Shown: piece after piece, positions 603-47,459 of the stretch
Layout: each line of letters begins with the position of its first letter
Position numbering within the stretch: position 1 is the first letter of the stretch
Virus record (IMG/VR): IMGVR_UViG_2703718833_000007
Coordinates: 6,191-70,190 of that record
Direction: 5' to 3' (one strand)
Source of the DNA: a virus
Taxonomy: Duplodnaviria > Heunggongvirae > Uroviricota > Caudoviricetes
DNA: 64,000 nt
Notes under the pieces: model-generated
The model's input: the letters and a program-made list of their open reading frames with translations, nothing else
The model's database searches: none
What the model was told of the DNA's origin: nothing
Position numbers and translations under genes: made by a program

Positions 603-1655
603 TCAAATAGCGCCTGCGCGTGTATCGCGTAGCGTTTTTGGTTTAAGCAGGAAATCAAGTGTCGCAGTGAAGCCATCGCCGAAGTAAAAGTCCGAAGCCT
701 TGATCTTGAACGCTTCAAAGTAGGCGATAAAGCCGTTAATGCTTTTGTCTTTCAGGTAGTCAGTGAACGCATAGATCTTACGTTCCAAATCCCGATCCAG
801 TTCAGCAGGTGGCAACAGGCCATCAAACGTGATGTTAAACTCATTAACCACATCGGCAGCGTTTACAGTAGATGACAGCTTGCGCCATTGTTCAGCGTCA
901 GCCAGATACCCATCGAATTTAGTTACCCGGCAAATGTTGATAGGCTTAGGTGTTCCGCCACGGCTACGCCATTGCGTTAAAGCCCACTCAATCACTAATG
1001 TGATCTCATCCTCCGTATACGCTTTGCGTGTTTTTGTTTCTGTCAGTAGTTCGATGAATGGCTTAGCATCACGACATTTGCATCCTGCCTTGTCGTTGTA
1101 GAATGCCAGGCAACGCAATGCAGCATCGCTTATCTGATAGTCACTATCCTGATTGACTTCTTTTCTTTTTATATTTTTCTTTTCTTCTTCTGTTTCTTTT
1201 TCTTCTTCTAATTCTATTTCTAATTCATGACCCTTTCCTGACCCGGTCATGACCATATCATGACCTTTTGTTGTTGGATTGATTAACTTCTCTAATTTTA
1301 ATTGCTCCTTAGCTGTGTTTATGGCTGCCCTGTATGCGCTTTTAGAAGTCATTGATTGGTCCAGCCTTTTCAATAACTTTAAACAAGTTATGTGGCCTTG
1401 AGAGCATTCGAATAAACCAATTTCGATAAAGTATTTCATCATTTCTTCTATGCGTTTTTCAGTCGATCCGACGTTTCGCGCGATGATTCTGGCGTCATGT
1501 CGTAGGTCAAATGTAAGGTTGTGCTGATCTACGTCATAAGTTATCAGTTCTAGGCAATACCAATAAAGCCCGTAGCCTTCCAGGCCATAATCTAATAAAA
1601 CGTTTTGAAGTTTTTCATCGCGGTTCGCATCGCTATCATGCTTAAACCACTTCAT
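603..1655 (-). CDS. Phage replication initiation / replisome organiser protein (DUF4373, Lin1244-like N-terminal domain)
   Basis: Track ORF 350 aa; N-terminus MKWFKHDSDANRDEKLQNVLLDYGLEGYGLYWYCLELI typical of this family; acidic/Lys-rich linker; adjacent to immunity region. Confidence 0.6.
   Translation of the reverse strand: MKWFKHDSDANRDEKLQNVLLDYGLEGYGLYWYCLELITYDVDQHNLTFDLRHDARIIARNVGSTEKRIEEMMKYFIEIGLFECSQGHITCLKLLKRLDQSMTSKSAYRAAINTAKEQLKLEKLINPTTKGHDMVMTGSGKGHELEIELEEEKETEEEKKNIKRKEVNQDSDYQISDAALRCLAFYNDKAGCKCRDAKPFIELLTETKTRKAYTEDEITLVIEWALTQWRSRGGTPKPINICRVTKFDGYLADAEQWRKLSSTVNAADVVNEFNITFDGLLPPAELDRDLERKIYAFTDYLKDKSINGFIAYFEAFKIKASDFYFGDGFTATLDFLLKPKTLRDTRAGAI
1150..1230. other. 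Candidate replication origin (AT-rich pyrimidine tract with TTCTAATTC direct repeats inside replication gene linker)
   Basis: ttcttttctttttatatttttcttttcttcttc...ttctaattctatttctaattc encodes the EEEKETEEEKK linker; analogous to lambda ori inside gene O. Confidence 0.3.
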
Positions 1656-1658
1656 AGA

Positions 1659-1916
1659 TCATTCCTCCGGCAACATCACTACATAGACATCACTGAATGC
1701 ATCAAGACGACAAACAAATCCTTTATCCATTAATGCGGCGAATGCATCATGTACCGTATGAACAGGAAGTTCACACATTGCGGCTACTTCTTTGCGTGAT
1801 GCATCATGTACCCGTCCTTTGTTATCTGCCTTTTCAGCCAGAGCCATTAAGACAAGTTTTTGAATCGGGCTGTTAAGTTTTACGTTCCATGCTTTGCTAA
1901 TAATGTTCATGCTCAT
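1659..1916 (-). CDS. Winged-HTH DNA-binding protein, first gene of leftward early operon (Cro-position regulator or origin-binding helper)
   Basis: Track ORF 85 aa; strong AGGAGA SD; HTH-like KLVLMALAEKADNKGRVHDASRKEVAAMCELPVHTV. Confidence 0.5.
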   Translation of the reverse strand: MSMNIISKAWNVKLNSPIQKLVLMALAEKADNKGRVHDASRKEVAAMCELPVHTVHDAFAALMDKGFVCRLDAFSDVYVVMLPEE

Positions 1917-2222
1917 TGTATTTTCTCCTATGGTTAAAATGAACGCGCTGGCGGGTATCCCATTAGCATTAGATAGCAGTGACTGACCGCTGAACAGATC
2001 CCGCCGTTGCGTGATATTTGTTTTTCGCTTCGCAGCGACACCGGATTTTTAAAGAGCTTTTAAGGTATGTGCCTTTTGTGCTTTCCATTATCTTTTTTCT
2101 TGCATCCTTGCAAGTATGGCCTTACCTTGTCTGCAAGTTTACAGAATGGCGTTAACAGGTCAAGGATTGAAAATTACATTTTGTGACTTGCATCAAATTT
2201 TTTTAGGTTATAGGGTAGCGAC
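1917..2222. promoter_or_regulatory. Divergent immunity control region (PR-like / PRM-like promoters, putative operators)
   Basis: 306-bp gap between divergent wHTH gene and repressor gene; repeated CTTGCA(A/T)G palindromic motifs near 2097-2195; minus-strand TTGCAA-17-TAATGG promoter-like element. Confidence 0.45.
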
Positions 2223-2870
2223 ATGAAAACAAAATGGTATGACTTAGCGAAACAACTCATGCGGGCGCAGGGTATGAGTCAGGATTCATTGGCAGATCTC
2301 ATGGGGATCACAAAAGGCGGCTTGTCACACTGGCTTAACGGTCGCCGCGAGCCGAATCTTGAAGACATTGCGCGGATCATGCGGGCGCTTGGGCGTCGGC
2401 AATTCACTGTTACACATGATGGAATGGTCATTGATGATTCTGTTTCTAACACGTTGCCGGGAGCGCCACCGCGTGATTTAGGCAGTTACCCGGTTGTTGA
2501 CTGGAAGGATGTAGTAAACAATATGGAAGATGCAAGGCGATCAACATTACCACACGTTACGACTAGCGTTATTTGTTCAGATGATAGTTACTGGCTGGTA
2601 GCTAAAGGCGAATCAATGAACGCGCCGCAAGGATTGAGTATACCAGCGGGGACGATGATACTTGTCGATCCGCACGCGCCAGCTATTGATGGCAAACTGG
2701 TTATAGCCCAATTGGAGGAGGGGCAGATACCGACGTTTAAACAGTTGATTATTGATGGAGGCAGAAAACTTTTGCGTTCACTGAATCCGTTGTATCCGCC
2801 AATCCCTATGAATCCAGAATCTAAAATCATAGGCGTGGTAGTGGATGCGAAGATCGTAAACCTGCCATAA
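2223..2870 (+). CDS. CI-like prophage repressor (HTH_XRE + LexA-like S24 peptidase domain)
   Basis: Track ORF 215 aa; N-terminal HTH (SQDSLADLMGITKGGLSHWLNGRREP); C-terminal GESM Ser motif and FKQL Lys motif as in LexA/lambda CI. Confidence 0.8.
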   Translation: MKTKWYDLAKQLMRAQGMSQDSLADLMGITKGGLSHWLNGRREPNLEDIARIMRALGRRQFTVTHDGMVIDDSVSNTLPGAPPRDLGSYPVVDWKDVVNNMEDARRSTLPHVTTSVICSDDSYWLVAKGESMNAPQGLSIPAGTMILVDPHAPAIDGKLVIAQLEEGQIPTFKQLIIDGGRKLLRSLNPLYPPIPMNPESKIIGVVVDAKIVNLP

Positions 2871-2876
2871 ACATTA

Positions 2877-2900
2877 GCCGCCTGGTGGCGGCTTTTCTTT
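2877..2900 (+). terminator. Rho-independent terminator after repressor gene
   Basis: gccgcc-tggt-ggcggc stem-loop followed by ttttcttt. Confidence 0.6.
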
Positions 2901-2993
2901 GCCATAAAAACACCAAAACGTAAACAGAAAACGTTATTTATTGTTTAAATATCAATGACATATAAAATATTTTAAAAAAGTATACAAAATGGA

Positions 2994-3022
2994 TTGACTC
3001 GGTGTTTTACGTGGCGTATATT
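2994..3022 (+). promoter_or_regulatory. Sigma70 promoter (PL analogue) for rightward early operon
   Basis: TTGACT - 17 nt - TATATT preceded by AT-rich UP-like tract. Confidence 0.5.
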
Positions 3023-3063
3023 GCGAGTCAAAGGAGGAAGCAAGGCAGGGAAAGAAGGTTACT

Positions 3064-3101
3064 TGCTCTTTAACAATCTGGTCAGCCGCTGGAAGTGCGG
3101 C
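3064..3101 (+). promoter_or_regulatory. nut-like site: rrn-type boxA (TGCTCTTTAACAA) plus boxB-like hairpin
   Basis: Exact 13-nt boxA consensus, then 8-nt spacer and GCCGC-UGGAAGU-GCGGC hairpin, between promoter and N-like gene. Confidence 0.5.
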
Positions 3102-3156
3102 AATTAACGAAGATGATTTTTATTAAGTATCATCAAGGATATAAGGAGATCAGATC

Positions 3157-3447
3157 ATGACCGTTACAATCATGTATGGCAAATGTGATAGCAAAATAAA
3201 CGCCAGGGAACGCAGAAGAATAAAAAGAGAAAACGAAAGAAAATCATCACCTGCAATTAATAAAACAGACAATGTGGATAAAGCTATTCGCTTTGCAAAC
3301 GAGGAAAGATGCAAACCAAATAGCATTAAAGAACGTCGCAAAGGAGCAGTAAAATGGTATACGGAAAATGAAAGCGGCAACTACTACCACGCAACGCAAC
3401 CACGCCAGTTAGGGGAAAAACCCCTTGATAAAGTCCGTTACCATTAA
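3157..3447 (+). CDS. N-like transcription antiterminator (P22 gp24 / lambda N analogue)
   Basis: Track ORF 96 aa; strong AAGGAG SD; N-terminal MTVTIMYGK and arginine-rich motif ARERRRIKRENERK; immediately downstream of nut-like site. Confidence 0.65.
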   Translation: MTVTIMYGKCDSKINARERRRIKRENERKSSPAINKTDNVDKAIRFANEERCKPNSIKERRKGAVKWYTENESGNYYHATQPRQLGEKPLDKVRYH

Positions 3448-3477
3448 TACAAAATGTAAATAATCGGAGGTGACATT

Positions 3478-7415: not shown

Positions 7416-7512
7416 CAGCGTGATTGCGATCACATGAACATACATTTTGTGTTGTGATTGCATATCCGTTTTGTAAACTTAAATTAAAGGTTTACATCGC
7501 GGAGGAAAGTAA

Positions 7513-10672: not shown

Positions 10673-10869
10673 AACAACCACGCCACCGCCGCGCGGCTTT
10701 GCCCGTGCTGTATTCCTGGCTAACGACCGGGCCATCAATCGTGCTACGCTCAACCGCGTTTTACCGGACTGAAATTTACAAAATGGCGTCATTGCGTGAT
10801 GTGGATCACATAATGGCGCTTTTCACCTTGTTCTGACGTATCCGTTTTGTATACTTCAAACAAGCAAAA

Positions 10870-10902
10870 TGCTCTTTAAAAATCCGGCAGCGCTGAAATG
10901 CG
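10870..10902 (+). promoter_or_regulatory. Second boxA-like element (TGCTCTTTAAAAA) with weak downstream hairpin; possible nutR analogue
   Basis: boxA-like 10/13 match; only a 3-bp stem CGC-UGAAAU-GCG follows, so weaker than site at 3064. Confidence 0.25.
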
Positions 10903-31792: not shown

Positions 31793-32167
31793 GATACACC
31801 TCTCATTTACGTTTATCTTCGGTTGTCATTGCCAGCACTAGCACAGCCATCACATTAAATGCTAACCATTCTGTAATATATACATCTATAACCGTTTTGA
31901 TTGCGTCCATTTACCCGCCCCGCTTATTTCTTGTTTTTAAGTGCTTTCAGCATTTCTTCGATAAAGTCGGCATAGTGCTCATGCTCGTTGGGTCGGTAGT
32001 AGTTTTTCATTTTCTTATCCTCTTTTGCTTCCTCCGGTTAATCCGGCCTTCTAAATCCCTTTACTCTATCCCTTTCCTTTAGCCTCTTTATACAAAATGT
32101 ATTCGTTGAAGTGAAGCCATTTTGTATAAAATAGAGATCAGGATCACACTTTTTACGAGGTTAAATC

Positions 32168-35909: not shown

Positions 35910-36024
35910 GATGCCCCCCCTTTGTTGGTACTTCTTTCTCTTCTTGCTTTCTATATACATCTTGTTATGTCCTGTGTGAAGCCATTTTGTAAACTGGGTA
36001 TAATTCTTGTGACGAAGTTCTCAT

Positions 36025-37605: not shown

Positions 37606-37715
37606 TTTGTTAACCCTGCTTTCTTTTGAGTACAATATACATATTGTAAAAAGCGCTATCAACCGTTTTGGTATGATTTAGCGTGACGGCGATCACAAAA
37701 TGACAAGGTGATAAA

Positions 37716-44985: not shown

Positions 44986-45008
44986 ACCCCGCTACGGCGG
45001 GGTTTATA
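44986..45008 (+). terminator. Rho-independent terminator after J
   Basis: ccccgc-tacg-gcgggg hairpin followed by tttata. Confidence 0.6.
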
Positions 45009-45088
45009 CATATAGTAAACACATATTCGTCTGCGTAATGATAAGGCGTTAAAATAGTATGGTTAATTAACATAATGGAGTCATTGCG

Positions 45089-47085: not shown

Positions 47086-47459
47086 TGTACCAAATAGTGA
47101 CCAAATTTTAAAAAACAAAACTAAATCATACATAACACACTGTTTTTAAAGAGATAATATTTAACATTAACCATTCCAGACAGGACTGGTGAGTAAGTCC
47201 AGGGTATTGAAGTTGTGCGTAATCATTGAGATCCCGTTATTTTTATCAATTTTTGTTGCTATCCGATCGCAAAAAAGCCACGTCATATGATCAGATAATT
47301 CTGATAATGATAGACGCTATTTAACACTTCACACGGTTTGTATACGGATAAGCATTTTGCTTTTTGTATTCAATTTAGACAGAATTTTATTAATCATTTC
47401 AGGGTAATGGGGTGATGAGATGTTGCGTAACAGGGCCAGAAGGCTAGACTACAAAATAA

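Follow-up and report, generated by a model that had tools for sequence, protein, structure and literature searches.

The gap at positions 1917-2222 of the window (the whole 64,000-nucleotide stretch of viral DNA analysed here) is the left control region of the immunity module of an mEp021-like (mEpimmI) prophage. Its sequence makes it likely that the CI-like repressor of this module binds 13-bp dyads of the type ATACA-N3-TGTAT, and not the CTTGCA motifs that cluster in the same gap, and that the prophage is of a kind for which SOS induction is not expected.

As a locus, the region is already known: the phage group has been published, together with the group's repressor and nut sites. Positions 1600-3200 of the window match MagusPhagus and six mEp021-group phages of E. 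coli from Mexico at 87-97% DNA identity, and the repressor module matches the six mEp phages at 89-97%, with the matched phage features carrying the annotations 'cI repressor' and 'terminator'. The module is present in 35 of 5426 complete E. coli genomes, where identity is never above 94%, and IMG/VR holds 43 loci with repressors 92-99% identical to the window repressor; a scan of genome contigs with the repressor returned no relatives. No phage record is more than 97% identical to the window, which represents an allele of its own within the published phage group. Plasmid-expressed Rep021 (gp15 of mEp021) blocks all six immunity-I mEp phages, and the N-like protein Gp17 works at three nut sites, with nutL positioned upstream of gp15 and nutR1 in the corresponding place before gp17 (PMC11893012). 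The gene order of mEp021 and the mEpimmI phages is identical to that of the window, and nutL, nutR1 and an N-like gene are found in both, a difference in layout being a segment of ~215 bp (gp16) that lies between the rightward promoter and nutR1 in mEp021 and is lacking in the window. The operators of the repressor were left undefined in this 2025 mEpimmI paper (PMC11893012).

The repressor gene (2223-2870, plus strand) encodes a 215-aa CI-like immunity repressor that is homologous to Rep021, with an HTH_3 domain (PF01381, E 4.9e-13) followed by a Peptidase_S24 domain (PF00717, E 1.4e-18). The closest solved structure by sequence is that of lambda CI, chain 3bdn_A (E 1.1e-18). The EGNSM and TFKKL motifs of lambda CI harbour the catalytic residues Ser149 and Lys192, and it is with these motifs that Ser131 (GESM) and Lys173 (TFKQ) of the window repressor align. 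Whereas lambda keeps the cleavage site, the window repressor has lost it: the position of the lambda Ala-Gly aligns with Val-Val, YPVVDWKDVVNN stands where relatives have SWVSAG, and the sole AG or CG dipeptide of the protein is found at residue 143, within the S24 domain. In the cleavage-site column of 46 family repressors, the dipeptide is TV, VV, AA, VA or AV, with AG occurring in three loci only (the L040/L042 type). Loss of the cleavage site is thus not universal in the group, as the L040 and L042 type keeps the canonical Ala-Gly.

The lack of the canonical Ala-Gly in the window repressor is shared with Rep021, which is described as having no cleavage site (PMC11893012), and the same paper, with reference to Kameyama 1999, describes mEpimmI lysogens as not induced by UV. 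In addition, the 64-kb window contains no LexA box of the form CTGT-N8-ACAG, so that none is available to control an antirepressor. The initial annotation of this DNA had described a divergent control region beside a CI-like repressor with an S24 domain, and in this respect, as in its description of the flanking genes, it was accurate; the further step from the S24 domain to SOS-inducible autocleavage is not supported. The domain does not imply such cleavage here because Val-Val occupies the Ala-Gly position, the LexA box is absent, and non-induction by UV has been published. From its sequence, a Val-Val repressor would not be expected to undergo RecA-stimulated self-cleavage, and hence would not be expected to respond to SOS induction.

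On the other side of the gap, the first gene of the leftward operon (1659-1916, minus strand) encodes an 85-aa protein that corresponds to the N-terminal DNA-binding domain of O-like replication initiators. It matches phrog_4617, 'replication initiation protein', with an E value of 5.7e-23 over profile positions 1-90 of 223, and has no Pfam match. The next gene (603-1655) encodes a 350-aa replication protein with a Lin1244_N domain. The initiator match, together with the Lin1244_N replication gene, therefore identifies the leftward operon as a replication module whose first gene is no Cro, and a view of this gene as a Cro-type partner of the repressor is not supported. No conserved small ORF was found in the gap at 1917-2222. 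In a sister type, represented by L050-L053, the repressor is 56% identical to that of the window and the recognition helix is identical; here, L050 has an HTH_3 cro at a place where the mEpimmI phages have none.

The gap also holds a nut site, nutL (2025-2057, minus strand), that was missed in the initial annotation. It consists of boxA GCTCTTTAAAAA (reverse complement of 2046-2057), which is an inverted match to the boxA of nutR1, and a boxB hairpin UCGCU-GCGA-AGCGA (reverse complement of 2025-2038), which is present in both the MFE and the centroid folds. A 17-mer, GCTCTTTAAAAATCCGG, is shared between nutL and the nutR2 region at 10870-10886, where the nutR2-like sequence TGCTCTTTAAAAATCCGG spans 10869-10886. 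This sharing fits the remark in PMC11893012 that nutL and nutR2 are the most alike of the nut sites. The block 1971-2057, which includes nutL, is nearly invariant across the family.

Two promoters can be placed in the gap. In the case of the leftward early promoter P_L (2136-2163, minus strand), a promoter scan identified a -35 hexamer TTGACC (2163-2158) and a -10 hexamer TAAACT (2141-2136) separated by a 16-nt spacer. All 45 family loci have the same -10, and the -35 appears as GGTCAA or GATCAA on the plus strand, keeping TTGA, while the spacer varies; fixed hexamers flanking a variable spacer are the pattern expected of a working promoter. The homologous promoter of L050 is TTGAAC-16-TAAACT. 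Judging from the position of these hexamers, transcription from P_L would start near 2129. For the repressor gene, a putative maintenance promoter lies at 2188-2216 on the plus strand, with a -35 TTGCAT (2188-2193), a 17-nt spacer and a -10 TAGGGT (2211-2216) positioned 6 nt from the ATG codon. Its hexamers are conserved in the family and the spacer at 2198-2209 varies. Counterparts can be recognised in L050 (TTGAAT-17-TAGGAT-6-ATG), L048 (TATAAT-6-ATG), L054 (TATGAT-6-ATG) and L058 (TAGGTA-5-ATG). The hexamers of this promoter are weak, and it was not called by the consensus promoter scan, which proposed a rightward promoter TTAACA-17-TACATT at 2152-2180; the latter was rejected, as both of its hexamers vary within the family. 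No clear Shine-Dalgarno sequence precedes the cI ATG, and the repressor mRNA is probably leaderless, starting at the A of the ATG codon. A leaderless cI mRNA is likewise produced at lambda PRM.

The assignment of operators rests on relatives of the repressor. A protein search recovered relatives at 36-56% identity whose HTH regions are closely similar (ITKGGLSHWLNGRREP, ITKGAVSHWLNARREP, ITQGGLGHWLNGRREP) and most of which keep SWVSAG; limited to the 72 N-terminal aa, the homologue search recovered nothing beyond fragments of that same protein. In four of the relatives' loci (L048, L054, L055 and L058), three 13-bp dyads of the form ATAC(A/G)-N3-(T/C)GT(A/G)T are found between a divergent HTH_3 cro and cI, with their starts 33 and 25-27 bp apart. 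A symmetrised position weight matrix (PWM) was built from 14 sites of these four loci, with no site taken from the window. In three held-out loci (L063, L064 and L065), the top three matches to the PWM fall in the cro-cI gap with the same spacing, the sites starting at 620/653/679 or 618/651/677 and the ATG lying at 701. L063 has a second dyad triplet downstream of the repressor gene. CTTGCA is absent from the cro-cI gaps of all seven relatives, that is, the four that provided the PWM and the three that were held out.

When applied to the window, the PWM gave 10 matches of at least 12 bits versus 1.4 expected (maximum of 6 in 100 simulations), and 5 matches of at least 14 bits versus 0.4 expected. 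The core TACAAAAYGG is present in six exact copies (at 2983, 7466, 10777, 10842, 32117 and 35982), all of which are outside long ORFs. If one mismatch is allowed, there are 26 matches versus 11.3 expected, a number reached by none of 100 shuffles. A full-text literature search for the operator core sequences returned unrelated primer matches only.

Two candidate operators of this type can be discerned at the divergent promoters of the gap. O_a (TTACAGAATGGCG, 2139-2151) overlaps the -10 and the spacer of P_L, and the majority allele of the site, TTACAAAATGGAA, is found in 26 of 45 family loci; the window allele reaches only 4.5 bits on the foreign PWM. The site starts 84 bp before the cI ATG versus 81 bp for site 1 of the relatives, and the L050 counterpart, TTACGAATTGGTA, lies 85 bp before the ATG. 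The overlap of O_a with the leftward -10 amounts to 3 bp, like that of site 1 in L058, as read from the sequence. O_b (TTACATTTTGTGA, 2174-2186) abuts the -35 of the cI promoter, with its centre 43 bp upstream of the cI ATG, and scores 9.2 bits (rank 16 of ~64,000 positions). The alleles ATACATTTTGTGA and ACACGTTTTGTGA account for 12 and 26 of the 45 family loci, respectively. O_b starts 49 bp before the ATG versus 48 bp for site 2 of the relatives, and the distance between O_a and O_b is 35 bp versus 33 bp in the relatives. The gap of the sister type L050 conserves TGCAAGTTTAC, TCAAG, CATTTTGTGACTTG(A)ATCAA and a -10-like hexamer 6 nt before the ATG. No clear third, OR3-like site is seen in the gap; at ~2201-2213, agreement with the consensus, as counted by eye, is limited to 5 of 10 bases. 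The stretch 2227-2239 may be an additional site, but it falls in codons 2-6 of the repressor gene and is inseparable from coding constraint.

The repressor gene is followed by an intrinsic terminator (2876-2893, plus strand), with a 7-pair stem and then TTTTCTTT, that is annotated as a terminator in mEp021 and mEp515. Beyond it lies the rightward early promoter (2982-3022 including its sites, plus strand), composed of TTGACT (2994-2999), a 17-nt spacer and TATATT (3017-3022), and matching the consensus at 10 of 12 positions. Two candidate operators are present here, with centres 25 bp apart. ATACAAAATGGAT (2982-2994) abuts the -35, scores 15.0 bits (rank 5 of ~64,000) and is identical in 39 of 45 loci, and TTACGTGGCGTAT (3007-3019) covers the spacer and the -10 with a score of 7.7 bits (rank 25 of ~64,000). 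L050 has ATACAAAATGGTA and TCACAAGGCGTAT at the same places, and the rightward promoter of L050-L053 conserves TATACAAAATGG and GGCGTATA. CTTGCA is absent from 2871-3156, a stretch that includes the rightward early promoter. An inverted repeat around this promoter (TTGACTCG and CGAGTCAA) was considered as an operator and rejected, as its right arm varies (3027 is changed from G to A in several loci including mEp021). Downstream, nutR1 (3064-3101, plus strand) comprises boxA TGCTCTTTAACAA (3064-3076) and a boxB hairpin GCCGC-UGGAAGU-GCGGC (3085-3101), as recognised from the sequence, its fold and PMC11893012. The gene at 3157-3447 (plus strand) encodes a Gp17-like N-type antiterminator that matches phrog_271, 'anti-termination protein N-like' (E 5.9e-11), aligns with mEp021_17, and has a weak match to the Pfam N_peptide domain.

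From this arrangement a regulatory scheme can be put forward. Sigma-70 polymerase would fire leftward from P_L, through the CTTGCA dyad at 2114-2099, a potential hairpin, and nutL (2057-2025) into the replication genes, and the weak TTGCAT/TAGGGT promoter would fire rightward to give the leaderless repressor mRNA. Repressor bound at O_a (2139-2151) would cover the leftward -10 and shut off P_L, and repressor bound at O_b, centred 43 bp upstream of the ATG, would have the geometry for activation of the cI promoter. It is from that ~43-bp geometry that lambda CI, when bound at OR2, activates PRM. At the other end of the module, repressor at 2982-2994 and 3007-3019 would silence the rightward early promoter serving nutR1 and the N-like gene. 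What the analysis shows directly is sequence, homology, motif statistics and conservation of position; protein binding, start sites, activation and non-cleavage are what we infer for this scheme, with non-cleavage backed by the published failure of UV to induce.

The CTTGCA cluster, for its part, is found where the initial annotation had placed it. In the 64-kb window, CTTGCA has 32 matches on both strands, of which five are within 2099-2192 (2099-2104, 2107-2112 and 2187-2192 on the plus strand; 2109-2114 and 2132-2137 on the minus strand), the matches at 2107 and 2109 being the two strands of a single 8-bp palindrome, CTTGCAAG. In 500 order-2 Markov simulations of the window, CTTGCA never reached five copies per 100 bp, the maximum being four (in 5 of 500), and among the 2080 strand-collapsed hexamers, a density of at least five per 100 bp is reached only by CTTGCA and the low-complexity words AAAAAA, AAGAAA and AATTAA. 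As no simulation matched the cluster, and only low-complexity words cluster equally, it is real, and it is statistically the most striking complex hexamer cluster of the window. The reported overlap with promoter-like hexamers on both strands was likewise confirmed: TGCAAG at 2132-2137 overlaps the leftward -10 (TAAACT, 2141-2136), and CTTGCA at 2187-2192 overlaps TTGCAT (2188-2193), read as the cI promoter -35. Conservation within the family is partial. At 2099-2114, 27 of 45 family loci carry the 16-mer CTTGCGTCTTTGCAAG, and no more than 7 of 45 have the exact palindrome of the window, CTTGCATCCTTGCAAG; for this dyad, as for O_b, the window allele is a minority form in the mEpimmI family. 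TGCAAG at 2132 is changed to AGCAAG in 8 of 45 loci (T2132 = A), and ACTTGCAT at 2186-2193 is retained in 41 of 45.

We propose that the cluster is composite, and consists of two operator flanks and a separate dyad in the leader. When 2132-2151 (TGCAAGTTTACAGAATGGCG) is compared with the reverse complement of 2173-2192 (TGCAAGTCACAAAATGTAAT), 14 of 20 positions agree, as counted by eye, which makes TGCAAGT the conserved outer flank of O_a as well as O_b, with AAGT/ACTT adjoining the core. AAGT or AGT is found directly outside ATACA in many foreign sites too. To judge from their position, the flank bases at 2132 and 2187 would double as the P_L start region and the cI promoter -35, respectively.

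The dyad CTTGCA-TCCT-TGCAAG (2099-2114), which can also be read as a tandem CTTGCAWS repeat, is a separate element in the leftward leader, at ~+15 to +31 of the leftward transcript. It is unlike the operator family (PWM score below 2 bits), and its only invariant cores in the family are CTTGC, TC and TTGCAA. It is absent from the sister type L050, in which cro begins right after the promoter. As RNA, 2099-2114 would form a 6-bp hairpin (-6.4 kcal/mol, z -2.1); a conserved RNA hairpin was nevertheless rejected, as the changes seen in the family only erode the stem, with no compensatory pairs, and the whole leftward leader folds no better than shuffles (z -1.16). A CII-dependent promoter acting through TTGC-N4-TTGC at 2100-2111 was also rejected, with 9 occurrences versus 5.2 expected, a number that 9 of 100 shuffles reach, and with a placement that is uninformative. 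Initiator iterons were rejected as the main reading of CTTGCA, as a better iteron-like array of TCATGACC-like repeats in 11-bp phase exists at 1225-1265, where it adjoins a pyrimidine-rich stretch; that reading is also weakened by the fact that dyad variants do not follow swaps of the neighbouring gene. A search of 1800-3300 against Rfam at a permissive threshold gave two chance-level matches only.

Three other explanations of these sequences have to be set against binding of the repressor to ATACA-type dyads. In the initial annotation, the CI-like repressor was taken to use the CTTGCA(A/T)G palindromes as its operators at both divergent promoters and to be inactivated by SOS self-cleavage. 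Such a model would account for the highly non-random cluster and for the overlap of its copies with the leftward -10 and the cI promoter -35, and it is consistent with the intact Ser/Lys dyad and with the retention in L050, with one mismatch, of ACTTGCA / TGCAAGT at 2132 and 2186. However, the motif is missing from the rightward promoter (2994-3022) and from the operator-like sites at 7440-7476 and 10840, and in the seven relatives the operator positions hold a different tripartite dyad with no CTTGCA. Furthermore, of 45 loci sharing a single immunity only 7 have the exact palindrome, the 2099-2114 element is missing from L050, and Val-Val replaces Ala-Gly in a group reported not to be UV-inducible. 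We regard this model as very improbable. An idea that is unlikely, though less so, is that of a two-protein switch, in which the 2099-2114 dyad, perhaps with other copies, is the site of a second regulator, either a Cro analogue or the 85-aa protein regulating its own synthesis. The invariance of the CTTGC and TTGCAA cores in the family and the location of the dyad a short way past the leftward start, where roadblocks are typically placed, would both suit a protein-binding site, and some other antagonist is plausible in mEpimmI, which has no cro where the sister type has one. Yet the allele of the neighbouring gene has been swapped in several loci (with homology resuming from ~1921) and the dyad variants do not follow these swaps, the iteron-like array for the initiator is elsewhere (1225-1265), and no candidate binding protein was found.

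A protein other than the repressor could also be the binder of the ATACA-type sites, in which case the true operators of the repressor would be elsewhere. The best PWM matches of the window are outside the immunity region (32090, 3447, 37637 and 10840), the strongest including sites in the late region (32090/32115, 35980 and 37637), and the copies within the immunity region are weaker, as this explanation would have it. What speaks against it is position: in the seven relatives, the sites fall in the cro-cI gap at fixed distances from the ATG, O_a and O_b keep these distances, and at the two early promoters the sites overlap the -10 or lie against the -35. The recognition helix is, moreover, closely similar across the clade, and the likelihood of a different binder appears slight. 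Recognition of the ATACA-N3-TGTAT dyads by the repressor thus stays the preferred reading.

With this reading, the locus can be compared to known immunity switches. A CI-like repressor with HTH and S24 domains is common to lambda and the window, as is a repressor gene flanked on either side by an early promoter with a nut site downstream, together with an N-like antiterminator. In both, a repressor site (in the window, the candidate O_b) is centred ~43 bp upstream of the cI start, which in the window is probably leaderless. The two differ in that lambda has a cro, which is lacking in the window, and in that lambda has three operators spaced 23-24 bp apart, whereas the window has two candidate sites at the divergent promoters, 35 bp apart. 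The operator sequence of lambda also differs from the sites of the window, and in the window nutL lies directly in the gap. Judged from its sequence, the window would thus work like a lambda-type immunity region, but without three classical features of the CI/Cro SOS switch, namely cro, Ala-Gly and a clear third site. A closer comparison is with enterobacterial prophage repressors that begin M(K/N)..KWYDLAK (P0014, P0018, P0028, P0032, P0041 and L048), which are 36-52% identical to the window repressor, with a closely similar HTH. These relatives resemble the window in the operator core, in how far sites 1 and 2 lie from the ATG, and in a -10-like hexamer 5-6 nt before the ATG. They differ in possessing SWV(S/Q)AG, a cII-type gene, a cro that is transcribed divergently and, over the cI promoter, a third operator. 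The first three are absent from the lineage of the window, in which the third operator is not evident either.

Sites of the same type are also seen away from the immunity region. Some would belong to extra early promoters, at ~7440-7476 and at 10777/10840 just before nutR2, and others would be conserved paired sites in the late/tail region (32090/32115, 35980, 37637 and 47331/47357). Tentatively, the mEpimmI repressor may be a naturally non-cleavable S24 protein that has its catalytic dyad, operates without Cro, and governs a dispersed ATACA regulon of about a dozen sites, with the CTTGCA dyad of the leader as a separate and previously undescribed control element; this wider picture is possible, though doubtful.

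The analysis adds an operator assignment for a repressor whose operators were left undefined in PMC11893012, explains why the S24 domain does not imply SOS induction in this case, and corrects the reading of the leftward gene as a Cro-like partner. If the dispersed sites are true, a common group of gut coliphages would have a CI-type repressor that is not cleavable through RecA, has no adjacent Cro, and touches several operons, which would bear on how such prophages are induced in the gut.

In the GenBank record of coliphage mEp021, the repressor is annotated as mEp021_15 (597 bp, 2853-3449 of family locus L001), which is 17 codons shorter than the CI-like reading frame of the window at 2223-2870 (+). 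The true repressor is likely the longer protein, since its upstream start, MKTKWYDLAK, is conserved as far as relatives with 36% identity. Residues 96-97 of the repressor (window 2508-2513) occupy the alignment position of the Ala-Gly cleavage site, a column that is hypervariable inside one immunity group and reads TV, VV, AA, VA or AV. Ala-Gly itself is kept by a minority of loci (L040 and L042), so that cleavable and non-cleavable repressor alleles may coexist in a single immunity group. The LexA-box core CTGT-N8-ACAG does not occur within window 1-64000, and thus no LexA-controlled antirepressor is evident.

A sister phage type, loci L050-L053 (protein P0013), shares with the window the early gene order of N-like gene, ERF and SSB, and encodes a repressor that is 56% identical to that of the window, with an identical recognition helix. 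The sister type differs in possessing a true HTH_3 cro gene and a 124-bp gap, with nutL placed downstream of cro, and in L050 a gene of the ANT/pRha antirepressor type is present.

The divergent gap of the window carries a 25-nt direct repeat (2074-2098 and 2179-2203, 76% identical), the left copy of which is located between the leftward start and nutL. Each copy opens with the operator core's right half, TTTTGTG, and the two are separated by 105 bp, or about ten helical turns; CTTTTGTGC is conserved in the family.

On the rightward side, most family members carry a segment of ~215 bp between the promoter and nutR1 that corresponds to the small gp16 ORF of mEp021 (for instance, L001 3623-3859), and that is absent from seven loci in total and from the window, where the insertion point lies between 3049 and 3050. 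Inside this segment is a hairpin, CTTGCT/AGCAAG, replaced in L040 and L043 by TCACT/AGTGG, a swap that looks like a compensatory change. In the rightward early leader of the window (3039-3067), AGCAAG (3039-3044) is able to pair with CUUGCU (3062-3067), which overlaps the nutR1 boxA at its 5' end. This pairing resembles the GCAAG/CUUGC stem of the leftward leader, and the fold at 3039-3067 is no better than that of shuffled sequences (z -0.82).

Inside the 350-aa replication gene, four TC(A/C)TGACC repeats in 11-bp phase (1225-1265) adjoin a long pyrimidine-rich stretch, and together (1140-1265) they look like the replication origin; TCATGACC is found 7 times in the whole window versus 1.7 expected.

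Strong matches to the operator motif of the repressor family are dispersed across the phage, almost all of them intergenic and frequently paired at a spacing of 24-26 bp. These lie at 3447-3459, 7440-7452, 7464-7476, 10776-10788 and 10840-10852 in the early part, and further right at 32090-32102, 32115-32127, 35980-35992, 37637-37649, 45006-45018, 47331-47343 and 47357-47369. Upstream of the tape-measure-like gene (781 aa), the block CTTTATACAAAATGTATTCGTTGAAGTGAAGCCATTTTGTATAAAATAGAGA (32085-32145) contains two operator-like sites and is conserved in mEp515 and mEp013. The block marks a mosaic junction, because homology of mEp013 to the window starts exactly there, after an unrelated upstream cassette. 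The pair 7440/7464 is conserved in mEp515, as is the site at 10840, directly before nutR2. The dispersed candidate sites, with these kept in mEp515, suggest that the phage possesses additional repressor-controlled promoters.
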